From the NCBI GenBank assembly GCA_035353615.1, contig DAOPZY010000007.1, forward strand, positions 20,373 through 84,372: DNA of 64,000 nucleotides, read 5' to 3'. The position numbers and the translations under genes were made by a program. The notes beneath the pieces are model-generated. The model worked only from the letters and a program-made list of their open reading frames with translations, searched no databases and had not been told where the DNA came from. The stretch comes from Candidatus Limiplasma sp. (GTDB taxonomy: Bacteria > Bacillota > Clostridia > Christensenellales > Aristaeellaceae). The first letter of the stretch is position 1, and every line of letters starts with the position of its first letter. This document shows positions 17,566 through 32,318 of the stretch, in pieces.

Positions 17566-17701
17566 GCGGCTCAGCCGGGCGGCGGCGTAAAACCCTGCCA
17601 TCGGGCAGCCGCCTTCTTTCCCAAGCGTGAAAGGAAAAACACACGTCTGGCGCGAATAGGGTACCGTAATGGGAACAGACCGTTGGAAAGGAGCGACCGG
17701 C

Positions 17702-19849
17702 ATGCAAAAAAAAGCGTCAGCTTCACGGATGATTCGCGCCGCCCTTGAAAAAGCGCGCGCGGCATTCCGCGCCCCGGCGCTCAAACGGATTGCGCTTGGC
17801 GCGGTGTGCGTGTGCGCATGCGCCGTGCTCACCGGCTGCGCCGCGCTGCAAAGCCTGACGGCCGCTTTGCCGGCGCAAACGCAGGCGAGCTCAGGCCCCA
17901 ACCTTGATTTGCTCGCCCTGCCCGCCTATGAGGATCAGGAGGGCGGCGAAAGCGCGGCCAGCGACGGCGGCACAGCCTACGGCGCGGTGGATTTGTGGCT
18001 GGACGCGACCCAAAACGCCGGGGGCATCAGCGCGCTGACCACAAGCATGTATCCCCATGCGGGTAAAAAGTACCGCGAAGGCGGTTTCCATTACCGGTAC
18101 GGCACGCAAACCGGATGGTATGAAAGCCTGCTGCGCGATTTTCTCACCGCGGCCGGCGATACGCGCGTGCGAACCCTGCGCAACGGAAACGAAACCTTCC
18201 CGGAGGGCGTTCTGGAAGGGTTCGGCCTCGCGGCGGCGGACGCGGAAGCCGGCGCTTCGCTGTGGCGCGATCTGCACACCTGCGCCGTGGATACGCAGGC
18301 GGGGCTTTTCAGCCAGTTTTCCGCGGAGGAAATGGCCAACAGCTTTTACAGCCTTGGCTCCGCGGTATGGAACAACCGTTTGAACGGGCTGGACACCCAG
18401 TTGCTTGAGAACTCGACGCTTTCCGGCGCGATGAGCGCCGCCCTGACCGCGCAGACGGAGGCGATTGCGGCCGGCGACGCGGGCTATGTGCTGGCTGCCG
18501 GGAGCGATGGTCAACAGTGCGCGTTTTATAACGCTTTGGAAAATCTGGACCCCGAAAGGCTCAGCATCATCACGGTGGACCCTGCCTCGGTGCGCAAGGT
18601 GAGCGGCTCGGACGCGGACGGTCAGCCCGTCGCGTGGTACGAGCAGGCGCTGCGGGAACGCGGCGTGTTTGACCGGGGGCTATGCGTGGGCGTGCTGGAT
18701 TTTACGCTGGACTATCTGGGCCAGATGTCCAGCGTGGGCATAGCGGACCTCAGCGAGCCGCTCGTTTGGGGACGCGTGATTTTGGATGAAAAAAAGCAGA
18801 CCTTTGAAAACCTGGGCGTGATGCCCCGGCAGATGCTCACGTTTGTGATTGGTTCCAAAACCATGGTGAACGGCTTTATCCAGCGCCTGAAGGATACCAT
18901 TGACGCGGACCGCTCTCTGCGCGGCCTGCGCGGCCCGCAAAACGGCGAGCTTACCTATACGGCCAACGGCCAAACGGTTACGCAGCAGCCGTTTTCGTTC
19001 AGCTGGCAGGCGACGGTGATCGCCCGCCCCGGCATGGGGTATTATACGCAGCACACCGAAGGGACGGCCTTCGCCGAGGTTTCATCGGCGGCGCAGGCGG
19101 AGGAAACCGCTGCCGCCACAGGAGCCGACGGTTTGCCGCTTTTTACCCTCGTCAGTAGCGCGGACGGGAGCCTGCCGGATTACACGCTCAAGATCCGCTT
19201 TCCCATCGCAACCAGCGATGACGGGGCCAAACTGGATGTGAGCAAGCTCAGCGGCGCGAGCGTAGACACGCTCAGCACACTTTTGCTGACCCAAACGCTT
19301 GCCAACACCGCCGCAAACCGCGAAACTGCGCCGGCGGGCGCGCAGGTGATACCGTACCGGGACAAGCTGTATGTGTTTGAATCGGGAAAGGCGGACGGCG
19401 CTTTTACGCTGGCCGGCGTCGAGCAGGTGGGGGACGAGCTGGTCTGCTCCGTGCAGGCGAACGGCAAAGCGTTGCAGACCGGGTATTACCGCCTGCGCCT
19501 GTCCGCGGATGTAACAGCCGATCAGGTGACGTGGGAACAGGTGCCGTGGATTGACGGCGAGGACAGCCTGAGCGTCTCCATAACCGACGCCGACGCGTAT
19601 GCGTGGGAAACCTTCACCGCCGCGATGACCGAATACGACCGGGACGCCAAGGGGATCCCCAAGATGTTCCAGCACGCGTGGGGAAGCTACACGGATAAGC
19701 TGTACCACGGTTTGCGGGTGCCGGATTTTCCGCCGGTGTACAAGGCGTTTGCGCTGCGGGAGCTGACCGGGCAGGTCCGCGCGGCCGCTGCTTCGGACAC
19801 CAGCCCGCTGATCCGCTGCGCGTTTGAAGTGTTTGTGCCCGGCCGGTAA
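17702..19849 (+). CDS. Large predicted lipoprotein, function unknown
   Basis: 715 aa from ATG 17702, with AAAGGAG 8 nt upstream. It has a positively charged N-region, a hydrophobic core IALGAVCVCACAVL and the lipobox LTG-C. I recognise no catalytic motif. Confidence 0.7.
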   Translation: MQKKASASRMIRAALEKARAAFRAPALKRIALGAVCVCACAVLTGCAALQSLTAALPAQTQASSGPNLDLLALPAYEDQEGGESAASDGGTAYGAVDLWLDATQNAGGISALTTSMYPHAGKKYREGGFHYRYGTQTGWYESLLRDFLTAAGDTRVRTLRNGNETFPEGVLEGFGLAAADAEAGASLWRDLHTCAVDTQAGLFSQFSAEEMANSFYSLGSAVWNNRLNGLDTQLLENSTLSGAMSAALTAQTEAIAAGDAGYVLAAGSDGQQCAFYNALENLDPERLSIITVDPASVRKVSGSDADGQPVAWYEQALRERGVFDRGLCVGVLDFTLDYLGQMSSVGIADLSEPLVWGRVILDEKKQTFENLGVMPRQMLTFVIGSKTMVNGFIQRLKDTIDADRSLRGLRGPQNGELTYTANGQTVTQQPFSFSWQATVIARPGMGYYTQHTEGTAFAEVSSAAQAEETAAATGADGLPLFTLVSSADGSLPDYTLKIRFPIATSDDGAKLDVSKLSGASVDTLSTLLLTQTLANTAANRETAPAGAQVIPYRDKLYVFESGKADGAFTLAGVEQVGDELVCSVQANGKALQTGYYRLRLSADVTADQVTWEQVPWIDGEDSLSVSITDADAYAWETFTAAMTEYDRDAKGIPKMFQHAWGSYTDKLYHGLRVPDFPPVYKAFALRELTGQVRAAAASDTSPLIRCAFEVFVPGR

Positions 19850-19915: not shown

Positions 19916-20542
19916 ATGCCGAACAAACTGTTCTTCCGCATCCCAACCCACAACCGCACCAAGGTATTGCTGTGCTACCTGCTGGCATGGGGGGTAGCGT
20001 TGCTGTTGCCCTATCTGGGGCTGACGCGGCTGTACCCGTATAAACTGGCAGGCTCCGCGCCGGAAGTGTCCCAGAGCGTGCTCAGCCTGCCGTTGGCGTT
20101 GCCCGGCACGGTCAAAGAATTGCTTACCGCCGCGCAGTTCTCCTCGGACATGAGCCCTGCAGCGCTCAGCGTGGCAATCGCGGCCCGCGACCGGCTGTGG
20201 CGTTACGCGGTGGCCGGGGTGATGGCGCTGGCGGCGCTTTTAAGCCTGCTGTGGCAACTGCTGTGGCGCGTTCGATACCGCAGACCCAAACAGGCGGCCC
20301 GGGCAGCCATGAGGGCCGTTATGGACTATCATCTGTCCATGGCGGGGATTATCGCGCTGAACGCGCTTATGGCGTTGGCGCTGTACCTGCTGGGCGTGCG
20401 GTGGATCGGCGGGCGCACCGTGTGGGATTATCTGGTGTATTTCAGCGGCTTTGTGCTCAACCCCCTCGCGGCGATGGTCTGTTTTCGGCTGGCCGCGCCC
20501 CCGGCCATATCGGGCAAACACGGGTTTTTCAGGCGGCTGTAA
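19916..20542 (+). CDS. Small integral membrane protein (about 4 TM helices), function unknown
   Basis: 208 aa with hydrophobic segments VLLCYLLAWGVALLLPYLGL, YAVAGVMALAALLSLLWQLLW, MAGIIALNALMALALYLLGV and YLVYFSGFVLNPLAAMVCF. Same strand, 66 nt after the lipoprotein gene. Confidence 0.6.
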   Translation: MPNKLFFRIPTHNRTKVLLCYLLAWGVALLLPYLGLTRLYPYKLAGSAPEVSQSVLSLPLALPGTVKELLTAAQFSSDMSPAALSVAIAARDRLWRYAVAGVMALAALLSLLWQLLWRVRYRRPKQAARAAMRAVMDYHLSMAGIIALNALMALALYLLGVRWIGGRTVWDYLVYFSGFVLNPLAAMVCFRLAAPPAISGKHGFFRRL

Positions 20543-20649
20543 CGTTGTGCGGAAGCGCGCGCCGAAACGGGGGTTTCCGCTGTGCCTTGCGCACGGAAAC
20601 GCCGGCGGCAGGCGGCTCGCTTTCTGATCCTTGACCGACAGGAGGCCCT

Positions 20650-22755
20650 ATGTCCAACTATCTGCTTGCCATTGGCGGCACCGGCAACAAAATTCTGGAG
20701 GCGCTTGTCTATGCCTGCGCGGCGGACGCCCTCTATACCCTGGATGAAGATCGCCGCCCGGTTCCGCTTGCGGAGGTGCGGGCGCTGATTGTGGATGTGG
20801 ACGCAGCCTGCGGCAACACCACCCGCGCCAAGCAGGCAGCCGAACATTACGAGGCTGTGCGCGGGGCTTTCGCCGCGTCGCGCGTGCCTCATCGGGGCTT
20901 TCATACGGCGCTGAGCGTGGAGCGCTGGAACATGAACCTTGCCAAGCGCGCAAGCTCGGTCGCGGGCATTACGCAAAACCACCGGCGGGATCGCCTGCTT
21001 GCGGACAGCCTTTTTTCCCGCACAGAGGCCGAGCTGGAATACAGCGAAGGGTTTCGGGGGCATCCGGACCTTGGCGTGCTTTTTTTTGCGGATTTGCTCA
21101 ACAATCTGGACGCGTTGGCCGCCGAGGGCCAGCCAGACGAGATGGTCACGCTGCTTAAAACGATTCGCGCGGAGCTGGACGCGGGCGAAACCGTGTCGGT
21201 GATGCTGGCGGGGTCCATATTCGGCGGCACGGGCGCGAGCGGCATCCCCAGCATTTCCCGCTTTCTGCGGGAACGCTTTCGGGACCGCGCGGACCGGTTT
21301 GTGCTTTCGGCGGTGCTGATGCTGCCTTACTATGAGGTGCCGCCCGCCACCGCCGACGAAACGATGGAAATCGTCGTCAAATCCTCAGCGTTTTTGGACA
21401 AGGCCCGCACAGCCCTGCAATATTACGGCATGGAAGGAATGATCCGCGCCGGGGAGGACGACGCGCGCGGCGTGTACGACGCGCTCTACCTGCTGGGCCT
21501 GCCCCGGGAGGCGTTTGTGACCCAGCGCATCTACTCCACAGGCTCGCAAAGCCAGGAAAACGACGCGCACCTGCTGGAATGGCTGGCCGTGCGCTGCGCC
21601 GCGCAGTTTTACCGCACGGGTTTCCGCGGGGCGGACGCGCACAACATCGACTGCTATTATTACCAGTGGCACAGCCGCGATGTGTCCTGGGATTGTTTTG
21701 ACGCGGAAAGCGCCCTGTACAAAAACGCCTACGGCGGGCTGATGAAAAGCGCCGCGCTGTTTTTTGCCGAGTGTTACCCCACGCTGCGCGCCTGCATCCG
21801 GGAGGAAGCCAAACGCGAAGCCCGCACCGTGAATTACTGGACCGCCTATTTTTATGACGCGCGCCGGTTAAACGGCGCTCAGCGCGCCCAGCTGGAAAAA
21901 CTGATCGACTCGCTGTACCGGCTTTTCGCGTTTTACGCCAATTGGATGTGGCAGGTATTGCGCACGCTTCCGCCAACCCTTCGCCCGGAAAAACCGGGCG
22001 AGGCGGACGCGCGGGCGCTGGCGGAGCTGTACACCCGCCTGATTGACGCGCGCGGCGTGTTAGCCCAGTACGAAACCGCGCCCGCCGCCCACACCGCCGC
22101 GGAAGCGGAAACCTTGCAGGGCGAGGCGGCTGCTTTGGGCGAACAGCTCAACCGGCAGATCGTAACCGCCGGGGGGCACGCGTACCTCACGGCGGTCAAG
22201 GCGGAAAAAACGCGGCGCGCCGGGCAGCTGGAAAGCCAGCGGCAGGCGCTGCGCGAGCAGGAGGAGCGCATAGCTCTTTGGGAAGGGGAGGACGCGCGCT
22301 ATATGGACCCGCAAACCCTCCAGCAGGAAAAAGCCCGTTATGAAGCCATGCAGCGGGCTTACGCCGGCATGGCGGACCGGCTTTCGCTGGTGCAGGAGGA
22401 CGAAATGCGCGCCGTGGAGCGCCGCGTGGCCGATACGCCCGCGCTGGCGACCGATCTGGAATTGCCGGATAACGGGCTGTTTGAGCCGGAAGCGCTTAAT
22501 GCCCTGCACGAGTTGCTCACCCTGTACGGCGCGGGGGAAGAAGCGCGCGATATGCGGGCCGTGGAGGCCCTGCGAAAAACCCTGTGGGAGCGCCTGCACC
22601 GCCTGATTGCCCAACGCGTGCCCGATCGCCTGACGGCGGTGCAGGCCGTCGCGGGCATGGGCGGCGGCAACCGGATGGGCGAAGGCCCGCAGGCCGCGTT
22701 TGCAAGCTTTACGGCGGCTTTGCTGGCAGCCGTTGTGGAGGAGGAAAACCCATGA
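20650..22755 (+). CDS. Divergent tubulin/FtsZ-superfamily GTPase-like protein with C-terminal coiled coil
   Basis: 701 aa with RBS AGGAGG. It has an N-terminal glycine loop LLAIGGTGNKILEAL (T1-like), then GFRGHPDLG, then SIFGGTGASGIPS at residues ~188-200 (T4 tubulin-signature-like; nt 21211-21246). Residues ~470-600 are E/R/Q/A/L-rich heptad-like helix. Confidence 0.65.
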   Translation: MSNYLLAIGGTGNKILEALVYACAADALYTLDEDRRPVPLAEVRALIVDVDAACGNTTRAKQAAEHYEAVRGAFAASRVPHRGFHTALSVERWNMNLAKRASSVAGITQNHRRDRLLADSLFSRTEAELEYSEGFRGHPDLGVLFFADLLNNLDALAAEGQPDEMVTLLKTIRAELDAGETVSVMLAGSIFGGTGASGIPSISRFLRERFRDRADRFVLSAVLMLPYYEVPPATADETMEIVVKSSAFLDKARTALQYYGMEGMIRAGEDDARGVYDALYLLGLPREAFVTQRIYSTGSQSQENDAHLLEWLAVRCAAQFYRTGFRGADAHNIDCYYYQWHSRDVSWDCFDAESALYKNAYGGLMKSAALFFAECYPTLRACIREEAKREARTVNYWTAYFYDARRLNGAQRAQLEKLIDSLYRLFAFYANWMWQVLRTLPPTLRPEKPGEADARALAELYTRLIDARGVLAQYETAPAAHTAAEAETLQGEAAALGEQLNRQIVTAGGHAYLTAVKAEKTRRAGQLESQRQALREQEERIALWEGEDARYMDPQTLQQEKARYEAMQRAYAGMADRLSLVQEDEMRAVERRVADTPALATDLELPDNGLFEPEALNALHELLTLYGAGEEARDMRAVEALRKTLWERLHRLIAQRVPDRLTAVQAVAGMGGGNRMGEGPQAAFASFTAALLAAVVEEENP

Positions 22756-25700
22756 AGCGTAACCGCAAAGATGAGCGCAAAGCGGAGCTGGACCGCAATA
22801 CCTCCTACCTCACGCTGCTGCCGACGATGGACGAAGGCTTTCATACCGGGTACCAGACCCGCGCGGGCGTGGTGAGCGATGGAAACCAGAAGCCCCACGA
22901 GTGGCTGGAAAGCGTCGCCCGCAACCTGCTGACCCCGGGGGAGGACGTCGGTTACGCCATCCCGGATGTGCTGGCGGGGGAAGCCCAGCTTCGCCGCCTG
23001 ATGCGCCTACCCTTTGAGGACGCGATGCGCCATCAGGAGATGCTGGATTGGCGCGGCGCGCTAGCAACCTTGCTGCTGTGGGACGGTTGGGCGCAGGACG
23101 ACACCTGGCCCCAGCTGGCTTGCGAAAACATGCTGGACGGCGAAAGCGGCGATTTTATCAAAAGCGTGCGGGCCGCTCTGCCGGCCGGCCGCGAAAAGTT
23201 TGGGCTGTGGCTGTTTACCCTGTCGGTGGAGCGGGACGGCGTGCCGGAACGCAAGGCGATCGGCATGCTCTCGCCCACGGTCGCGCTGGCGCCCGCGGCG
23301 AACCCCGGCGACCTTTCCTCGCTGCTGCCGGAGTGCGTGCGGTGGTACAACCGCAAGCGCAAACGATTTGAGGACCCCTGTTCCTGGCTTGGCGAGGCGG
23401 ACCGCGCCCGGCTGGTGCAGCGGTTGCGCTATTTACAGGCCCTCAACGAGCGCGCGGAACTGAAAAGCGTGCTGTATGCGGCCGACGCTTCGCTATGCGG
23501 GTTGCTCGACCATTTTGTGAGCGATTTGATGGCGCGGCGCGGGTCGTGGCGGGAAAGGCTGGAAGCCGGGGACCCCCGTGCCGAGCGCGAGCTGTACATC
23601 CGCACGCTGGCGGTGTACGGGCTGGGTGAAATCAGCGTTTTACCGGGGCTGACCCGGCGCGATGATCCGCTTTCACTTTCAGAGCTTGCGCAAAACCCGC
23701 TGCTGGCGCGCCTCGCGCCCACAAACACCGTAGCGCCCGCCGAGCTGGGCGGCGCGAGCGCGGTCACCTACAGCTATCAGGGCAAAGCGTTTGCCATGGA
23801 AAGCCCGCTGTACCTTCTGGAGCCGGCCAACGCGCCCGAGGAAATGGACACGCTGCGCCAACTGTGGCAGGAGCTGAGCCTGCCCGCCCAGTTTGACGGG
23901 GAGTGGAACCGCCAGATTGCCCGCCGTTTTCTGGCGTTGGCCAACCGGCTGACCGGTCGGCTGGGAGCCAGCCGCAAGGTGATCGCCATGCTCCGGGAAT
24001 GGAGCCAGCGCCACGCGGCCTACCGGGAATCGGGCGACCGCTCCGTGGCGTTTCAGCTGCCCCTGAAGGACGCGCCCGCCACGCTGGCCGGCCTGAGCGC
24101 GGAAATGATCGGCCTGACCGACCCCAGCGTGCTGACCGGCGCGTTTTCAGACTGTCTTTTGCTGTGCGAGGGCGTGATGCCTTTCCATTTGCCGGTGCTG
24201 AACGATCGCTGCGCCGTGCGCGGCGCTGAAAACCTCTACGCCGTGCCGCCCATCAGCTCCGCGCTGGCGCTGTGGCTTTCCGAAACCGCCGGCGACGCGC
24301 AGGAGGATTACTTCCGCCCGACGCTGCCTGAGGACGCGTTTGCCTTTGAGGCGTTTGAAGATGAAGAAGGCCGCAAGGTGCGGGCGCATATGCGCCTGAC
24401 CCGCCGCCGCCGGGCGGAGGGCGCGGCGTTCCAGAACCGTATTGAGCTGACGCGCGTGTACCGGATGGGCGCGGAATTTGCGGAGGGGATGGCGGTGCCC
24501 GTCGCCGCGCGTGAATTGCCCACCGTGCGCTTTTGGCCGGCCGCTCGCCTCGCCGCGGGGCAGTGGAGCGCGTACTACGTGCTGTCCCAAAAACCGGACG
24601 CAGTGGATGTGGCGGTGCCCACCGGGAATGGGTGGGCGCAGGGCGAACCGCGCCGCGCCGTGGACGACAGTGAGCGCAGCACGCCGACGGAACGCCGCTG
24701 GCAAATAGCCCGCACCGAGCGCTGGCCGTTGTATGTGGGGCTGATGCGCGGCAAGCTGTGCCTGGGCGCGCTGCCCAACGACGAGCCGCTTTCTCAGTTG
24801 AAACGCGAAGGCCCCGCCGCCGTGGCCATCGACTTTGGCTCCAATGCCACCACGGTGATGATGCGTCAGGGCGAACATATCCGGCCTGCGGCGCTATCCC
24901 CCAGGTTGCTGAAAACGCTTTTGCAGGGGCGCTCCGGGGATGATCTGCTCCTGCCGGACGAGCTGTTGCCGGCCGTAACCTATCAGGACGAGGCGCGCCC
25001 CTCCACGTTTGGCAGCGTGATGGACCTGTTTGGCGATGATGAAGAAAAATGGAACGCGCCGCTGATTGACGGGCATATTTACTACCCGCGCGATCTGGCT
25101 TCGCTTTTGCGCAAAAACCCCAATACGCTGTACTATGACCTGAAATGGGGCGACGAGTCTTATCAGGTGCGCTGTTTACGCCTGTTTATCAAGCAAACCA
25201 TGCTGCAAGCCTCGCTGGCGGCGCGGCTGAGCGGTTCCCCTTCGGTGAGCTGGCGGGTGTCCATGCCCAACGCCATGCCCCTGCCCCGGCAGGAAGCCTA
25301 TCTGGAAACGGTGCGCGGCCTCGCGCGGGAGGTGGCTGCCGAAACCGGAATGCCGCTGACCCAGGGTGTGCCCGCGGCGCTTTTTGCCAGTGAGAACCAG
25401 GCGGATGGCCTCTATTTCCGCCGCCGTAACGAGGTGAACGCCCGCAGCGGCTACCTGAACATGGATGTGGGCGGCGGCACCACCGACCTGAGCGTGTGGC
25501 TGGGCGGCGCTCCATTTGCGACGCTGGAAACCTCGCTGCTGCTGGGTTGCCGGCAAATCCTGTTCGAATCGCTGAGCGCGCGCCACCGCGACGAGTTCGA
25601 AGCGGATTTTGCCCGCGCGGAGGATGGGTTGAAAAACCTTGTGCGGGATTTGACGCGCGCGTTTGCGCGCGGCGACGCCTCCCTTCGGGCGCGCCAGAAG

Positions 25701-26393
25701 AATGTGTTTTTGCTGGACGCTTTTTTTGCCGGATATGGCGAGAGCGTCGCGGCCATGATGGCGCAGGCGCGCGCGCAGGGTCGCGTGAGCCTGCTGGAAA
25801 GCCTGCTTTTGCTCAATTTTGGGTTTCTGTTCCGGCTGTGCGGAGAAATGCTGGACCGTTGCGACCGGGCGGAGGAAAGCCGGGCGCAGTTGCGCCCGCG
25901 CATGGAAATCTGCGTTGCGGGCAACGGCGGGCAATTCCTGAAGTATTTTGACGAGGACGCGCGCAATAAGCTGTTCCGGCTGGCGCTTTCGGGGCTGAAC
26001 CCGCGCCACCCGGTGCAGGAACTGTTGCTGGTGCAAAGCCGCCACCCGAAACAGGAGGTGGCGATTGGTCTTTTAGCGGACGACAGCCGCCTGCGAAGCT
26101 CCGTGCAGGGCACAGAAGCGATCAGCCCCGCGCAGGCGGCGGCCGCCGATCCGGACAAACGCCGCCACTTGCTCAGGGAATACCTGCTGGCGTTTTACGC
26201 CGCGTTTCCGCAGGCGGGGGAAAAGCTGATGGGCAACGCCTTTGACCCGGAGGGCGGCGCGCGCCTTGTGCGCCTGAAGCCCGCCGCGGAAATTGAGCTG
26301 GAAGCGATTTTGGATAACGAGTTGAGCGAGGGCGACGAGTTTTCCGGCTACGTGCGCGCCTTTGCCGGCATGAAGCGTTTGTGGGGCATCTGA
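22752..26393 (+). CDS. Giant protein with a C-terminal actin/Hsp70-like (ASKHA) ATPase core; N-terminal ~690 aa unassigned
   Basis: 1213 aa from ATG 22752, preceded by GGAGGAGGA. An ATGA overlap with the upstream stop implies translational coupling. The track start at 22584 would overlap the upstream gene by 170 nt. Phosphate-1 is AVAIDFGSNATTV (nt ~24822-24857), phosphate-2 is NMDVGGGTTDLSVW (~25458-25500) and the adenosine motif is ICVAGNGGQFL (~25906-25945). Confidence 0.7.
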   Translation: MKRNRKDERKAELDRNTSYLTLLPTMDEGFHTGYQTRAGVVSDGNQKPHEWLESVARNLLTPGEDVGYAIPDVLAGEAQLRRLMRLPFEDAMRHQEMLDWRGALATLLLWDGWAQDDTWPQLACENMLDGESGDFIKSVRAALPAGREKFGLWLFTLSVERDGVPERKAIGMLSPTVALAPAANPGDLSSLLPECVRWYNRKRKRFEDPCSWLGEADRARLVQRLRYLQALNERAELKSVLYAADASLCGLLDHFVSDLMARRGSWRERLEAGDPRAERELYIRTLAVYGLGEISVLPGLTRRDDPLSLSELAQNPLLARLAPTNTVAPAELGGASAVTYSYQGKAFAMESPLYLLEPANAPEEMDTLRQLWQELSLPAQFDGEWNRQIARRFLALANRLTGRLGASRKVIAMLREWSQRHAAYRESGDRSVAFQLPLKDAPATLAGLSAEMIGLTDPSVLTGAFSDCLLLCEGVMPFHLPVLNDRCAVRGAENLYAVPPISSALALWLSETAGDAQEDYFRPTLPEDAFAFEAFEDEEGRKVRAHMRLTRRRRAEGAAFQNRIELTRVYRMGAEFAEGMAVPVAARELPTVRFWPAARLAAGQWSAYYVLSQKPDAVDVAVPTGNGWAQGEPRRAVDDSERSTPTERRWQIARTERWPLYVGLMRGKLCLGALPNDEPLSQLKREGPAAVAIDFGSNATTVMMRQGEHIRPAALSPRLLKTLLQGRSGDDLLLPDELLPAVTYQDEARPSTFGSVMDLFGDDEEKWNAPLIDGHIYYPRDLASLLRKNPNTLYYDLKWGDESYQVRCLRLFIKQTMLQASLAARLSGSPSVSWRVSMPNAMPLPRQEAYLETVRGLAREVAAETGMPLTQGVPAALFASENQADGLYFRRRNEVNARSGYLNMDVGGGTTDLSVWLGGAPFATLETSLLLGCRQILFESLSARHRDEFEADFARAEDGLKNLVRDLTRAFARGDASLRARQKNVFLLDAFFAGYGESVAAMMAQARAQGRVSLLESLLLLNFGFLFRLCGEMLDRCDRAEESRAQLRPRMEICVAGNGGQFLKYFDEDARNKLFRLALSGLNPRHPVQELLLVQSRHPKQEVAIGLLADDSRLRSSVQGTEAISPAQAAAADPDKRRHLLREYLLAFYAAFPQAGEKLMGNAFDPEGGARLVRLKPAAEIELEAILDNELSEGDEFSGYVRAFAGMKRLWGI

Positions 26394-28668: not shown

Positions 28669-30831
28669 ATGCCAGCAAAACAAACCCTGACCCTCCATCG
28701 GTTTTTGCGCCTGGCGGGCTGTGTGCTCGCGGGCGCGTTGTGTATGCTTGCCTTTACGGTGCCGCCCGAAGGGTATGTGGGCATCAGCGACCCGCCCCTG
28801 AGGGCCGGCAGCACGGTTTGGTGCCTGTACGCCGCCGCGCTGGCCGGGCTTTTTTGGCTGTATACCGGCAAACGCCGGGCGCGGCTTTCCGCCGGCATGA
28901 TGCTGACCGGGCTTTTATTTGGCGCGGTCAACTTTCTGGCGACCACGCTTTTTGCCTATGATACCTGGGACACGCTCGCTTCCGCGCCCGCCTTGATCCG
29001 CGCGGCGCTGTGCGTATTGGGGCAGGCCGCCGTGATGGCGGCGGGCCTTGCGCTGGTGTGCGAGTGGCTGGAGGGCGTTTGGGACAGCCGGGACAAGCGC
29101 CCGTCGGTAGCCTTTGCGCACGCCCGGCCGGACGCTCCGGCAGGCCATGCGCAAAGCAGTGCGGATTGCCTTCCTGCGGACGCAAGCGATGATTGGAACG
29201 CTGAGCCGGACGCGGCGCATATGGCAACCCCGGCGATGGATTTGCCGCTTCCTGTTATGGAACCGACGGGTGATTCAAGCCCAGCGGGGCGTGTTGCGGA
29301 TTGCCTTCCTGCGGACGCAAGCGATGCCTTGAACGCTGAGCCGGATGCGGCGCGCGCTGTGACCCCGGATCGGTTTGGGCTGCGGCGGCGGTATAGGCGG
29401 CTTGCCGATCGCTTCCCGAGGCTGGACGCGTGGCGCAGACGCCATCCAGTGGCCAGCGTGGCGTTGCTGCTGCTGGTTTGCTGGTCGCCATACCTGATCG
29501 TTTTTTACCCCGGCACCATCATTTGGGATATGGGCGAAATGCTTGGCATGCTCTACGGCCTGCGGCCCATGACCACGTGGCACCCGGTGTTTGCCACATG
29601 GCTGTTCGGGGGCGCGGTGGCGCTGGGCCGGCTGTTTGGCAGCGACAACCTGGGCGCGTTTCTGTTTACGGCGCTCCAAAGCGTCGCCATGGCCTACGCG
29701 CTGGCGAGGGTTATTCGACTGCTTCGAAAATTTGGGCTGGGGCCGGGCTGGCGACTGGCGGCGCTTGCGCTTTTCGGGCTGACGCCGATTTTTGGCTCGT
29801 TCGCTCAGGCGGTGGGCAAGGACACGCTTTATACGGCGGCCATTTTGATGGTCACGGTGTACACGGTGGAAACGCTACGCTTCGGCGCGCCGCGCGGCAG
29901 GGCGCTGATGGGTTATGCAGCGTGGACCCTGCTGGCCTGCCTTGTGCGCAATAACGGGCTGTACGTGGCGGCCGGCGCGGCGGCGCTGGTGGTCGCGTTT
30001 GGTCTGCGGGGCCGCGCAAGGCTGCGGGTAGGCGGCGCGCTGGCGGCGGCGCTCGGGCTGGCCATCGGCTTTTCCGGCGTGCTGGTGCCCGCGCTTGGCA
30101 TCCGGGACGCCACGGCCTCGGGCCTGTACTCGGTTTGTTTTCAGCAAAGCGCGCGGGTGTTGCGCGACCACGCTGATACCGTGACCCCGGAAGAATATGC
30201 CGAAATTGACCTTGTTTTGGACGCGAAAAACCTGCCGACGCTCTACGAACCGGTGATTTCCGACCCGGTCAAGTATACCTTCCGGCAATACGGCGAAGGC
30301 CGCGAAGCCGAAACGGCGGCCCTGACCCGGTACCGCCAAACCTGGCTTTCGATGCTGCGCAAATATCCGCTCACCTATTTGGAAGCGTTTGTGGCGGGCA
30401 ACAGCGGCTATTATGCCTTTACCCCGAAAATTGACGCGGCCCGCACCTACAACCAGCAGGGCGGGATCCGTTTTGTGTTTGAAACCTACGAGCTGGGCGC
30501 GGACGCGCGCTACCTGCATACCACGCAAATTGAGGCGCTGAAAACCGCGCGCACGCTGCTGGCGGCCTATTCCCGCGGGTGGCGGCGCGTGCCGGCCTTG
30601 GAGCTTTTCCTGTTTTGCCCGGTGTACACGTGGCTTTTGGTGGCGGCGGGGCTGTCGCTGGCGCGGCGCGGCTATTGGCGGGCGCTGATCGCCTTTGCCC
30701 CGGCCTTGCTGAGCCTTGGCGTGTGCCTGCTGTCGCCGGTGGATGATTATTTCCGCTATTTTTTGCCGATTGTCGCCATGACGCCGCTGCTGTTGGGCCT
30801 TGCGCGCACGGAGAAAAATACGGCCGCGTAA
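28669..30831 (+). CDS. Large polytopic membrane protein, GT-C-like candidate glycosyltransferase
   Basis: 720 aa with more than 10 hydrophobic helices. It has a WSPYLIVFYPGTIIWDMGEMLG...WHPVF region like uncharacterised GT-C/DUF-type membrane glycosyltransferases. It starts 30 nt after the GT2 gene and contains an acidic insert with an internal duplication. Confidence 0.55.
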   Translation: MPAKQTLTLHRFLRLAGCVLAGALCMLAFTVPPEGYVGISDPPLRAGSTVWCLYAAALAGLFWLYTGKRRARLSAGMMLTGLLFGAVNFLATTLFAYDTWDTLASAPALIRAALCVLGQAAVMAAGLALVCEWLEGVWDSRDKRPSVAFAHARPDAPAGHAQSSADCLPADASDDWNAEPDAAHMATPAMDLPLPVMEPTGDSSPAGRVADCLPADASDALNAEPDAARAVTPDRFGLRRRYRRLADRFPRLDAWRRRHPVASVALLLLVCWSPYLIVFYPGTIIWDMGEMLGMLYGLRPMTTWHPVFATWLFGGAVALGRLFGSDNLGAFLFTALQSVAMAYALARVIRLLRKFGLGPGWRLAALALFGLTPIFGSFAQAVGKDTLYTAAILMVTVYTVETLRFGAPRGRALMGYAAWTLLACLVRNNGLYVAAGAAALVVAFGLRGRARLRVGGALAAALGLAIGFSGVLVPALGIRDATASGLYSVCFQQSARVLRDHADTVTPEEYAEIDLVLDAKNLPTLYEPVISDPVKYTFRQYGEGREAETAALTRYRQTWLSMLRKYPLTYLEAFVAGNSGYYAFTPKIDAARTYNQQGGIRFVFETYELGADARYLHTTQIEALKTARTLLAAYSRGWRRVPALELFLFCPVYTWLLVAAGLSLARRGYWRALIAFAPALLSLGVCLLSPVDDYFRYFLPIVAMTPLLLGLARTEKNTAA
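29161..29353 (+). repeat. In-frame intragenic direct duplication (two ~58-nt copies 135 nt apart)
   Basis: gcggattgccttcctgcggacgcaagcgatg...aacgctgagccgga occurs at 29161 and 29296. It encodes ADCLPADASD(D/A)(W/L)NAEPDAA twice, 45 codons apart. Confidence 0.85.
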
Positions 30832-30989: not shown

Positions 30990-32318
30990 CTAACAGTAAT
31001 GGGGCAGGCCGTCGTCCTCTGTGGGCAGAGGGATCTGCAAACCCAGCACGGCGGGCCATTCGCCGCGCTCGGCGATGATGAAGCCCATCAGCATCCCCAG
31101 ATGGGTGTGCAGGTGGCGCATCTGCCCCACCATCAGCGTAAGCCGTGAGTAGGGGCTGCCTTCGGGGCAGGCGGTCAGCGCGCGGTCGCTGAGCGCGTTC
31201 AGGTAGGCGCGAAGCCGAACCGTAATTTCCGCCAGATAGGTTTCCAGCGACAATGGGGAAAGCGCGGGGCCGTCCACGGTCAAATCCAGATTGTTCAGGC
31301 CCGGCCGGTGAATGGCAGGCTCATGGATTTCCTGCGGGTTGATAAACCAGTGATCCAGCGAATGCAGCATATGATAGGCGTGCCGCCACAGGGGCGCGCC
31401 GCAGTATTCCCGCTCCCACAGGCCGCTGTCCGCGGCGCAGCGGAGCACGTTTCTCACCTCCCACAGGGCGCGTTCCGTCAGTTCCGCGAGGGTGTTTACC
31501 TCGCTTCGGGCGGCGGAATCCGCCGGGGACGCGACAGGGAGAGCCTCCGCCTGCGCGGGCCGTGGCTCCGCCTGAGCGATGCGGGCGGCCTCAAAGCGAA
31601 GCCCTGCCGCGCGGAGGCCCGGCATCGCCGCCTGTCGCTTGTCTGAGCCATCGGCTTCCGCCTGCGTAGCTTGCGTGCCCGCGGGGGCAATGCTTGCCTC
31701 GCCGGGGCAGTCCGCAGCGGCGACGGCCCCCGCGACTGCCTCGGGAGCGTCGCTGTTTACAGCGGAATGCACACGGTGTTTTTTCCGGAATCGCTTGCTG
31801 TAGCGCTCCTCCTCGCTGAACACGCAACCGCAGTATTTTTGGATGTACAGGTTCAGCGCCCGCGCCTCCTCCTGCCCCTGCCGAAACAGCGGGCGAAAAT
31901 CGCGGTATAAAAACGCCACCCCAAACTCCTGCGCGGCCTGCTCGGCGGCCGCGCGGAGCAGCTCGTGGTTTTGGTAAGGGCTGATGAACAGGGTGCTTGA
32001 AAAATGCGTGAAGCCGTGCTCCGCCGCATAGCGGGCGGTTTGCCGCATCCGCGCCGCGTAACACACGAGGCAGCGCCCCGTGATGTTTTCCGCCACGGCC
32101 TGGGTAAAAGGCCGCAGCCCGTATTCATCTTCCAACAGTAATGAAAGGCCGATGGTTTTGGCGTATTCCACAAGCGTATCCCGGCGCGCTCGGTACTCCG
32201 TATAGGGGTGAATGTTTGGGTTGAACCAGTAGCCGGTCGGCTCCAGCCCCTCGCCGCGAAGGCTTTGAATGCAGGCAACGGAACAGGGCGCGCAGCAAAT
32301 GTGCAGGAGTAGCTTCAT
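30990..32318 (-). CDS. queH: Epoxyqueuosine reductase QueH fused to a DinB/YfiT-like C-terminal domain
   Basis: 442 aa. The N-terminal ~185 aa (MKLLLHICCAPCS..., WFNPNIHPYTEY, CLVCY, YCGCVFSEEE) is QueH/DUF208. An Ala/Gln/Pro-rich linker of ~95 aa follows. The C-terminal ~160 aa has a His triad (HMLHSLDHW ... HLHTHLG) typical of DinB-fold proteins. Confidence 0.75.
   Translation of the reverse strand: MKLLLHICCAPCSVACIQSLRGEGLEPTGYWFNPNIHPYTEYRARRDTLVEYAKTIGLSLLLEDEYGLRPFTQAVAENITGRCLVCYAARMRQTARYAAEHGFTHFSSTLFISPYQNHELLRAAAEQAAQEFGVAFLYRDFRPLFRQGQEEARALNLYIQKYCGCVFSEEERYSKRFRKKHRVHSAVNSDAPEAVAGAVAAADCPGEASIAPAGTQATQAEADGSDKRQAAMPGLRAAGLRFEAARIAQAEPRPAQAEALPVASPADSAARSEVNTLAELTERALWEVRNVLRCAADSGLWEREYCGAPLWRHAYHMLHSLDHWFINPQEIHEPAIHRPGLNNLDLTVDGPALSPLSLETYLAEITVRLRAYLNALSDRALTACPEGSPYSRLTLMVGQMRHLHTHLGMLMGFIIAERGEWPAVLGLQIPLPTEDDGLPHYC

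Follow-up and report, generated by a model that had tools for sequence, protein, structure and literature searches.

Introduction

No branch of the tubulin/FtsZ superfamily is more divergent than that of the FtsZl1/Tubulin_2 proteins. In the comparative study of Makarova & Koonin (2010, PMC2875224), the FtsZl1 architecture consists of an FtsZ-like head, a coiled coil and an alpha-helical C-terminal domain, and it is the basis of the Pfam family Tubulin_2. FtsZl1 proteins carry inserts between the T1 and T4 loops, and neither a T6-H7-T7 region nor a canonical C-terminal domain is recognisable in them. Classical members, with about 850-1,190 amino acids (aa), have vWA proteins, OmpA-like proteins, kinases and a divergent GTPase as their neighbours; a lone neighbourhood with a DnaK-like giant, that of M. 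magneticum amb2961, is found in the supplement (PMC2875224). Here we describe a protein of this type encoded at nucleotides (nt) 20650-22755 of a 64,000-nt stretch of DNA from Candidatus Limiplasma sp. (contig DAOPZY010000007.1, positions 20,373 to 84,372; the whole stretch is called the window below), together with the giant ATPase of actin/Hsp70 fold (ASKHA) encoded by the next gene.

A second set of related systems was described by Kaur, Burroughs, Iyer & Aravind (2020, PMC7159879). These are GTPase-centric conflict systems with DO-GTPase and GAP1 proteins, and they include tubulin and HSP70 components. They also have transmembrane (TM) and extracellular components, and in Firmicutes their tubulin domains carry a fused coiled coil at the C-terminus. 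That survey treats its tubulin theme as not overlapping with its theme of HSP70 plus GrpE (PMC7159879).

Literature searches on PF13809 and on anti-phage systems that combine tubulin-like and Hsp70-like proteins returned only the comparative papers of 2010, 2020 and 2023, and the searches brought up no experiments on any FtsZl1/Tubulin_2 protein. What appears to be new in the locus examined here is a conserved module in which a tubulin-fold protein and a giant actin/Hsp70-fold protein occur with membrane partners, a combination that seems undescribed as a unit.

Results

A divergent tubulin/FtsZ-superfamily head

By its sequence and its predicted structure, the 701-aa protein is assigned to the tubulin/FtsZ superfamily as a highly divergent member of the FtsZl1/Tubulin_2 type. 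The sequence evidence for this placement is weak but consistent, and the structural evidence is stronger. The features of the gene and of its head are as follows:

20640-20645, + strand: Shine-Dalgarno sequence AGGAGG, ending 4 nt before the ATG of the tubulin-like gene
20650-22755, + strand: tubulin-like open reading frame (ORF), gene 3 of the cassette, FtsZl1/Tubulin_2 type, 701 aa (from the ORF list)
20650-21984, + strand: head domain, residues 1-445, delimited by DSSP of the structural model, Pfam and the head profile
20674-20691, + strand: T1-like loop GGTGNK, residues 9-14, directly after strand S1
20794-20826, + strand: T2-like segment DVDAACGNTTR, residues 49-59, after strand S2 (presumed T2)
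21046-21075, + strand: T3-like loop EGFRGHPDLG, residues 133-142, a candidate T3 equivalent by motif pattern and position
21211-21249, + strand: T4 signature loop GSIFGGTGASGIP, residues 188-200, between S4 and H4
21322-21345, + strand: T5-like segment LPYYEVPP, residues 225-232, after S5 (strand at residues 217-224; presumed T5)
21532-21570, + strand: loop YSTGSQSQENDAH, residues 295-307, invariant or nearly so, with a predicted local distance difference test score (pLDDT) below 50 at residues 290-304

An AlphaFold2 (AF2) model of the 701-aa protein was built from 114 sequences and reached a pLDDT of 86.4 and a predicted template-modelling score (pTM) of 0.85. In this model the head is Rossmann-like, with the order S1-H1-S2-H2-S3-(helical insert)-S4-H4-S5-H5-S6 according to DSSP. 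Family-specific inserts are accommodated in the GTPase-domain topology, which is followed by a helical region with a single strand, and the S1/H1 and S4/H4 crossovers, where tubulin and FtsZ bind the phosphates, each carry one of the two glycine loops. When the model was compared with the PDB using Foldseek, the top 50 matches were all alpha-, beta-, gamma- or Odin-tubulins (E 6e-4 to 1.4e-2, probability 0.99-1.0, 305-479 alignment columns). In a viral structure library the best match was a phage tubulin (E 0.022), and PhuZ ranked fourth.

Homologues of the tubulin-like protein were collected (n=165), and two alignments were examined: one of the close family, with 114 homologues, and one of the broad family, with 93 sequences of relatives 20-30% identical to the query. 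In the close family GGTGNK, DVDAACGNTTR, EGFRGHPDLG, GSIFGGTGASGIP and LPYY (residues 225-228) are invariant or nearly so, and D49, V50, D51, C54, G55, N56, T57, T58 and R59 are all invariant. Four residues (G9, G12, G134 and P226) are invariant even in the broad family, where G10, F135, G137, P139, G142, S189 and G192-A196 are at least 90% conserved, as are G298 and Q302 of loop YSTGSQSQENDAH. The best-conserved columns among the 20-30% identical relatives are residues of T1, T3, T4 and T5. Because the loop motifs are near-invariant in 114 homologues and provide the best-conserved columns in distant relatives, they are not a product of chance. Loop YSTGSQSQENDAH is a possible equivalent of T6/H6 or a possible partner-contact loop.

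Profile searches point in the same direction. The window protein matches Pfam Tubulin_2 (PF13809) with an E-value of 1.9e-4 (21.2 bits) over its full length; the head alone gives 6.4e-5 (22.8 bits) with Tubulin_2 and 7.2e-4 with Tubulin. PF00091 matches residues 169-213, the T4 region, with a sub-threshold E-value of 1e-3. All 48 homologues searched match Tubulin_2 (E<=0.01; best E 1.8e-8) and 25 of the 48 match PF00091, while several relatives of about 25% identity pass the Tubulin_2 gathering score with 28.5-45.4 bits. Some relatives carry the NCBI label "tubulin-like domain-containing protein". An alignment with hhalign sets the T1-like loop on GVGGGGGN of E. coli FtsZ, IVDVDA on AVNTDA, and GSIFGGTGASGIP on the FtsZ sequence GMGGGTGTGAAP, and the T3-like pattern G..G.P..G is common to EGFRGHPDLG and to GAGANPEVG of FtsZ.

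The family is large. Searched against 1.84 billion representative proteins, the head profile recovered 1,724 clusters at 50% identity, and most of these relatives have 480-600 aa and span profile positions 1-440, that is, the whole head of about 440 aa. A homologue search with the broad profile mostly returned the same close relatives again, with one distant named addition (P0283).

The locus had previously been annotated from its sequence alone (the initial annotation). The ORF proposed there is real, conserved and preceded by a strong Shine-Dalgarno sequence, and the peptides that it quoted lie where it had placed them or a few bases away: LLAIGGTGNKIL at residues 5-16, SEGFRGHPDLGVLFF at residues 132-146 (nt 21043-21087), LAGSIFGGTGASGIPS at residues 186-201 (nt 21205-21252), QLESQRQALREQEERIALWEGE at residues 526-547 and QQEKARYEAMQRAY at residues 558-571. 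Its identification of the head as a tubulin/FtsZ-superfamily nucleotide-binding domain agrees with the exclusively tubulin Foldseek list and with the Tubulin_2 matches of all 48 homologues; the AF2 topology is of the tubulin type, and the glycine loops are correctly placed and conserved in both the 114- and the 93-sequence alignments. Its claim that the T4 loop deviates from the signature GGGTG(S/T)G at a single position needs correction: FGGTGASG (residues 191-198) is off at two or three positions, and the contiguous identity is GGTG.

A dispensable helical insert and a conserved C-terminal domain

Two regions follow the head:

21985-22449, + strand: variable helical insert, about residues 446-600, rich in A/E/R/Q, modelled as four long helices
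22450-22752, + strand: C-terminal helical domain, residues 601-701, with the motifs LPxNxL ... RVPDR ... GLGGG ... F.ALL.AV.EEE

The initial annotation had treated everything beyond the head as a coiled-coil tail of about 230 aa with heptad-like spacing. What is found instead is an insert of about 155 aa (residues 446-600) followed by a conserved C-terminal domain of about 100 aa. The helices of the insert (residues 449-476, 483-507, 509-545 and 554-590) are modelled with pLDDT above 90. A crude score of hydrophobicity at a/d positions is no higher in residues 445-600 than in the rest of the protein, and so does not demonstrate heptad periodicity.

Homologues fall into two length classes, of about 700 aa and about 530 aa. 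In the alignment, residues ~446-600 are cleanly missing from the 530-aa forms, which nevertheless end in the same ~100 C-terminal residues; the insert is lacking in about half of the close homologues. When a tree of the head was built by neighbour joining, short forms turned up in at least 5 separate places among the long forms, and one of them (P0022) sits inside the subclade of the query. This scattering indicates that the insert is dispensable and has been lost repeatedly, which deprives it of the defining role that it had been given. As the insert is cleanly excisable, it is probably an antiparallel hairpin, and it may be viewed as a dispensable spacer or arm.

The C-terminal domain is present in long and short forms alike, D659 and L691 are invariant, and in the fused homologues described below (P0178-P0181) it directly precedes the N-terminal domain of the partner. 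The conserved element of the post-head region is the C-terminal helical domain, not the helical segment.

The partner gene encodes a giant ASKHA protein

The gene that follows the tubulin-like gene has these features:

22752-26393, + strand: gene 4, partner of 1213 aa (from the ORF list; 61 homologues)
22929-24161, + strand: N-terminal region of the partner, about residues 60-470, the part fused to tubulin-like proteins elsewhere
24816-26390, + strand: ASKHA ATPase domain, about residues 689-1213, from motifs and Foldseek
24831-24851, + strand: phosphate-1 motif DFGSNAT of the ASKHA domain
25389-25409, + strand: connect-1 motif SENQADG of the ASKHA domain
25464-25487, + strand: phosphate-2 motif DVGGGTTD of the ASKHA domain
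25917-25931, + strand: adenosine motif AGNGG of the ASKHA domain

The partner has a disordered N-terminus and continues through an alpha/beta N-terminal region and a beta-rich middle domain to the C-terminal ASKHA domain (AF2 model with pLDDT 85.7 and pTM 0.72). A Foldseek search of the PDB matched the last ~520 residues to the nucleotide-binding domains of Hsp70 proteins and to MreB (E 1.6e-7; 464 matches at or below 1e-3), and the key residues of the four ASKHA motifs are invariant in 55 homologues. On the basis of the structural match and of these invariant residues, the partner is probably an active ATPase. Relatives of the partner give sub-threshold Pfam matches to MreB_Mbl, FtsA, EutA, DDR and Ppx-GppA at the phosphate-2 region, and the best PDB sequence matches of the partner itself are FtsA and MreB at the phosphate-2 motif, neither of them significant. 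Because the Pfam matches (MreB, FtsA, EutA, Ppx) are all sub-threshold, no specific ASKHA family can be assigned. Neither a membrane-targeting helix nor a TM segment is predicted in the partner, whose sole hydrophobic stretch is weak and lies inside the ASKHA domain.

A four-gene cassette with membrane-associated products

The two genes upstream and the junction of genes 3 and 4 complete the cassette:

17669-19849, + strand: gene 1, predicted lipoprotein of 726 aa, with signal peptide and LTGC lipobox (Cys57)
19916-20542, + strand: gene 2, polytopic membrane protein of 208 aa, with about four TM segments (4-TM) as judged from hydrophobic segments
22738-22755, + strand: coupling signal made of the Shine-Dalgarno sequence GGAGGAGG and ATGA (ATG 22752-22754, TGA 22753-22755)

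The four genes are co-oriented, in the order lipoprotein, 4-TM protein, tubulin-like protein and 1213-aa ASKHA protein. Genes 3 and 4 overlap in the sequence ATGA, which holds the stop codon of the former and the start codon of the latter, and the Shine-Dalgarno sequence of gene 4 lies within the V-E-E-E codons of gene 3. Conservation of the acidic tail of gene 3 could partly reflect this ribosome-binding site and not the protein.

A genome scan of close relatives, with one genome per species, yielded 56 loci, all of them in metagenome-assembled genomes (MAGs) of uncultured Clostridia (Candidatus Limiplasma, Egerieenecus, Christensenellaceae and similar hosts). In every one of these 56 species-level loci tblastn found the four genes in the same order wherever the contig allows, while the flanks vary. 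Within the clade the cassette is syntenic and vertically conserved, with 40-78% identity, and has no hypervariable module. Gene 1 stands immediately upstream in every locus with enough contig, has one N-terminal hydrophobic segment, and retains the lipobox cysteine in most of the 56 orthologues. The hydrophobic segments of gene 2 span about residues 15-37, 94-119, 138-164 and 172-190, and its position is kept in all loci. As predicted from these features, the lipoprotein and 4-TM genes indicate membrane association of the cassette.

No Pfam domain and no PDB profile match was found for the lipoprotein family, apart from a non-significant Ig/Fn3-like (PECAM/Fn3) hint at about residues 480-577. 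More generally, no vWA, GTPase, OmpA or kinase domain was detected in the cassette by Pfam, NCBIfam or PDB profile search, and PADLOC and NCBIfam gave no match for any of the four proteins.

Gene 1 contains a nearly invariant motif, VDLWLDASQxMGGIN (17990-18035, residues ~108-122), which resembles strand beta1 and the metal-ion-dependent adhesion site (MIDAS, DxSxSM) of vWA domains. The second Ser of the MIDAS-like motif is not conserved, and Pfam vWA models do not match. If the lipoprotein had a vWA fold, the cassette would be tied to the classical FtsZl1 operons.

Searches were also made for the hallmarks of GTPase-centric conflict systems. DO-GTPase gave no Pfam match in the cassette, and a tblastn search with the DO-GTPase2 of locus L064 (see below) was negative in the window and in the other 72 of the 73 loci fetched. 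GAP1 (N1/N2, M and C domains), for which Pfam presumably holds models, gave no Pfam match at E<=1 in the four proteins, although very divergent versions could escape. On these searches, the Christensenellales-type cassette is a variant without DO-GTPase, GAP1 or a detectable vWA domain.

The tubulin-like/ASKHA pair is found across phyla

In every distant relative with a fetched neighbourhood, the next gene encodes a homologue of the partner with 1,000-1,240 aa. These pairs come from Bryobacteraceae (Acidobacteriota), three other Bacillota contexts, a plasmid of Picosynechococcus PCC 73109 (Cyanobacteriota), and Prevotella oral taxon 299 (Bacteroidota), and their heads are 23-30% identical to the query. 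Homology of the partners was detected with hhalign (99.8%, E 5.6e-28; 98.9%, E 1e-17) and with hmmsearch (1e-30 to 1e-63); the match of the Prevotella partner is weak (hmmsearch 8e-3). To judge from these sequences, the tubulin-like/ASKHA pairing is ancient. In distant loci, a signal-peptide/lipoprotein gene and then a small 4-TM gene occupy the same positions upstream of the pair.

Gene fusions were detected as well:

(i). Four proteins of about 910 aa (P0178-P0181) combine the head, the C-terminal domain and the N-terminal region of the partner; positions 57-437 of the hidden Markov model of the ASKHA family match their residues 522-901.

(ii). In a distant lineage, a protein of 1341 aa (P0313) combines the head with most of the partner, and P0237 is a weaker third case.

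The initial annotation had suggested that a coiled-coil extension could bridge to the downstream protein. Together with the ATGA overlap and strict co-occurrence, the fusions support such a bridge by the C-terminal part of the protein; it is the C-terminal domain that would provide it, not a coiled coil.

Some genomes harbour more than one version of the cassette. One MAG (JAZKYW01) has a short-form cassette plus a divergent long-form cassette (L038 and L053). The complete Limiplasma chromosome OY776489.1 encodes both P0022 and P0331, the second head being about 24% identical to that of the query; in short Logan contigs, a partner homologue follows P0205, the cluster representative of the second OY776489.1 gene.

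In distant relatives a fifth gene of 245-350 aa is usual right after the partner (L062, L064, L069, L070, L071 and L072), often with a signal peptide, a lipobox or a TM segment; the window cassette is without it. Plasmid-borne relatives occur in cultured cyanobacteria, namely Picosynechococcus PCC 73109, 7003 and 8807, [Synechococcus] sp. NIES-970 and Gloeothece PCC 7822. On the plasmid of Picosynechococcus sp. PCC 73109 (L072, 6201-13796; AWQ23_RS15335 to RS15315), the order of genes, all annotated as hypothetical, is 409-aa, 170-aa 4-TM, 509-aa tubulin-like, 1100-aa ASKHA and 302-aa lipoprotein-like.

Genomic neighbourhood of the cassette

The window is ordinary chromosome and carries genes for purine biosynthesis, DapF, an aminotransferase, an Asp/Glu racemase, glycosyltransferases of families GT2 and GT4, a DUF6020 protein, MurB and RseP. 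Relatives have genes for GT4, GT2, an epimerase or a PBP on their flanks. A search of 50,697 phage records found no relative of the tubulin-like protein. An origin from a phage or another mobile element was rejected in view of the housekeeping chromosome and of the lack of phage relatives.

Two unrelated observations were made in the window. A direct repeat of 74 nt (29160-29233 and 29295-29368; 85% identical, 135 nt from start to start) is located in the ORF of the DUF6020 membrane protein (720 aa), within its N-terminal extension, where it duplicates the peptide ADCLPADASDxxNAEPDAA. In addition, the QueH ORF (30990-32318, - strand) encodes 442 aa with the QueH domain confined to residues 3-171, which leaves about 270 extra residues; QueH has 187 aa in related loci.

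Discussion

The explanation towards which we lean, with some reserve, is that a divergent tubulin-like protein and an ASKHA ATPase act together at the membrane. Since the nucleotide-binding half of the fold (loops T1-T5) is kept, the head most likely binds GTP. In the mechanism we envisage, the conserved T3 loop would sense the gamma-phosphate or nucleotide state, and the C-terminal helical domain would dock on the ASKHA protein at its N-terminal region. Assembly of a complex at the cytoplasmic face of the membrane might be gated jointly by the two nucleotides, through the GTP state of the head and the ATP cycle of its partner; the 4-TM protein and the lipoprotein would anchor this complex and couple it to the outside. 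As to the form that the head takes, a non-filamentous GTP switch or oligomer, in which hydrolysis, if any, would be triggered by a partner, is reasonably probable; homopolymeric filaments, which we hold to be somewhat improbable, are given less weight because T7 and the C-domain are missing.

As for the role of the cassette in this clade, we favour envelope organisation by a small preference, and regard an anti-phage or conflict role as rather improbable. Hints of an envelope role are the envelope-type neighbour genes, vertical inheritance, the negative PADLOC search, the lack of phage relatives, and the presence of a DO-GTPase in 1 of 73 loci only. A bolder version of the same explanation would be an obligate machine of two NTPases, anchored across the membrane by the 4-TM protein and the extracytoplasmic lipoprotein, which organises or remodels the envelope and assembles without a T7 loop or a tubulin C-domain; it would be a widespread module (at least 1,700 clusters at 50% identity, in at least 4 phyla) that is undescribed as a unit. 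We offer this version as a speculation that is unlikely to be right in full.

A number of observations weigh against the explanation just outlined. At the level of the fold, the Tubulin_2 score of the window protein (21-23 bits) is below the Pfam gathering cut-off of 27 bits. Searches of PDB sequences with the tubulin-like protein (phmmer and profile hmmsearch) returned coiled-coil noise only, and no tubulin or FtsZ. With hhalign, either S1-T1-H1/S2 (E 0.028) or H3-S4-T4-H4 (E 0.13) is all that aligns with E. coli FtsZ, matches that are too weak to be used for mapping T6 and T7. Foldseek TM-scores are 0.25-0.35 (on target), with root-mean-square deviations of 7-22 A, mostly 8-10, and the core alone superposes; large inserts account for the low TM-scores (~0.3). 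A T7/H8 synergy loop (N-x-D-x-x-D/E followed by a helix) was not recognised in the AF2 model, where HNIDCYY (residues 331-337) shows an NxD pattern that is modelled as a strand and has no third acidic residue. Nor was the four-stranded C-terminal beta-sheet domain found: past residue 283 the model is helical except for one strand (334-339), in agreement with the initial annotation, which had noted that a canonical C-terminal domain was apparently missing, and the window protein has no Pfam match to FtsZ_C or Tubulin_C. As neither the T7-type acidic loop nor the beta-sheet C-domain was found, GTP hydrolysis and polymerisation may not occur.

At the level of the cassette, three elements are ones that we infer: the hairpin geometry of the insert, the physical interaction with the ASKHA protein, and membrane anchoring through genes 1 and 2. 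The envelope role is drawn from hints in the neighbourhood. Genes 1-2 are detectably homologous only in some distant loci, namely L071 (4-TM gene, E 1.3e-5) and, weakly, L070. Two cassettes are present in some genomes. In a Limiplasma-like genome (L068, 10001-12709), a lone gene of 902 aa (P0179) stands after the DapF and aminotransferase genes; it encodes a degenerate tubulin-like head and C-domain fused to the N-terminal region of the partner, and the lipoprotein gene, the 4-TM gene and the ASKHA domain are absent. This single gene looks like a reduced or decayed remnant, or a repurposed form. Lastly, a DO-GTPase2 gene (PF19993, E 3.9e-11) is found two genes downstream of the pair in L064 (15921-17042), and genes for CHAT-TPR, protein kinase and PP2C phosphatase proteins lie upstream of the pair in L062 (1-3816). 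Neighbours of these kinds are typical of conflict systems.

Three other explanations have to be considered. Chance resemblance through glycine-rich motifs, with an unrelated Rossmann-like fold or function behind it, could be argued from the marginal Pfam E-values (1.9e-4 and 1e-3, both under gathering thresholds), from the lack of PDB sequence matches and from the modest Foldseek E-values. However, a single family, tubulin, fills all 50 top structural matches, and the viral library also puts a phage tubulin first; Tubulin_2 is matched by 48 of 48 homologues, several distant ones exceeding the gathering score at 28.5-45.4 bits; and T1-T5 follow the FtsZ order and sit at the strand-helix crossovers where they belong. 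A chance match of motifs is very improbable in our view and was rejected on these grounds. Another explanation is a cytomotive filament of the TubZ/FtsZ kind, in which the actin-fold partner would serve as an FtsA-like tether or adaptor that binds the C-terminal region, in a process other than division. The conserved GTP-binding loops speak for it. To our knowledge, the characterised FtsZ, tubulin, TubZ, PhuZ, CetZ and BtubAB proteins all polymerise. The genes are adjacent and translationally coupled, the best sequence motif matches of the partner are FtsA and MreB, and the variable linker plus conserved C-terminal module may be likened to the linker and FtsA-binding peptide of FtsZ. Yet the model has no T7/H8 loop or beta-sheet C-domain, a conclusion that Makarova & Koonin reached likewise for FtsZl1, and the partner, three times the size of FtsA and with extra domains, has no predicted membrane-targeting helix or TM segment. 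We consider a filament of this kind quite unlikely.

Slightly less unlikely is a conflict (anti-phage or abortive-infection) system like those of Kaur et al. 2020, in which NTPase assemblies would set a threshold and the invader would be sensed at the membrane. The GTPase-centric systems of those authors do bring together tubulin, HSP70, TM and extracellular parts (PMC7159879); their HSP70 theme, however, involves a bona fide HSP70 with GrpE and is kept apart from that of tubulin, and no description of the giant ASKHA partner is given there. The DO-GTPase2 gene near the L064 pair and the CHAT-TPR, kinase and PP2C genes beside L062 fit a conflict system, but neither the window nor 72 of the 73 fetched loci contain a DO-GTPase, and Pfam detects no GAP1, vWA, EAD or effector domain. 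Paralogous cassettes in some genomes, a decayed remnant at the syntenic DapF site in one relative, the plasmid location in cyanobacteria and the patchy phyletic spread of the broad family would also suit a conflict role. Against it stand the negative PADLOC result for the four proteins, the absence of relatives from the 50,697 phage records, and the behaviour of the cassette in its clade, where it is syntenic and vertical (40-78% identity), without a hypervariable module and placed among housekeeping and envelope genes.

The significance of the locus lies in the pairing: one large sub-branch of the FtsZl1/Tubulin_2 proteins is locked to a giant actin/Hsp70-fold ATPase by adjacency, translational coupling and at least 2 independent fusions. 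If the two NTPases form one complex, it would be a bacterial machine that joins both cytoskeletal folds, and one in which the tubulin fold can be tested as a switch and not a polymer. If the cassette is a defence system, NTP-dependent conflict systems would be extended to a form without DO-GTPase. Picosynechococcus is a genetically tractable group, and the presence of the pair on plasmids of cultured strains makes it experimentally addressable.

Comparison with known systems

The pair is reminiscent of FtsZ-FtsA in that a tubulin-fold gene adjoins an actin-fold gene and in that a variable linker precedes a conserved C-terminal element, which plausibly binds the partner; E. coli FtsZ can be aligned in the T1 and T4 regions, if marginally (E 0.03-0.13). 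In contrast, the gene order is reversed, no FtsZ_C domain or T7 loop was found, and the lipoprotein and 4-TM genes have no counterpart in FtsZ-FtsA. The partner also departs from FtsA in being three times larger, in its extra domains and in having no predicted membrane-targeting helix.

TubZ/PhuZ and the eukaryotic, Odin and BtubAB tubulins are the best structural matches of the head, and like the window protein they are divergent tubulin folds with C-terminal extensions. TubZ and PhuZ retain a T7 loop and a beta-sheet domain at the C-terminus, neither of which was found in the window protein, and their polymerisation serves to move DNA; they are tied to TubR/tubC or to phage nucleus functions, whereas no phage relatives are found here.

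The systems of Kaur et al. resemble the cassette in combining tubulin-fold and Hsp70-fold NTPases, which are thought to act there as NTP-dependent assemblies. The partner differs in being a giant multidomain ASKHA protein and not an HSP70 with GrpE, and vWA, FNIII and effector domains were not detected in the cassette.

The likeness with FtsZl1 is one of architecture. In the window protein the head (residues 1-445) is followed by the helical insert (446-600) and then by the C-domain (601-701), also helical; it belongs to an operon with membrane-associated proteins, and all tested relatives match PF13809. Because this order of head, coiled coil and C-domain is the published FtsZl1 architecture (PMC2875224), and because NCBI already labels some relatives as tubulin-like, the initial annotation went too far in describing the protein as unlike known families; it was largely right in what it observed, and its superfamily assignment is supported, but the architectural novelty is not. 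Differences from classical FtsZl1 proteins are that the window protein falls under the PF13809 gathering threshold, that vWA, GTPase and OmpA proteins are not detectable nearby, that the coiled coil is optional, and that a head of about 440 aa is housed in proteins of only ~480-700 aa whose constant neighbour is an ASKHA ATPase of ~1,000-1,270 aa. The sub-branch to which the window protein belongs is thus defined by its ~440-aa head and its obligate giant ASKHA neighbour.

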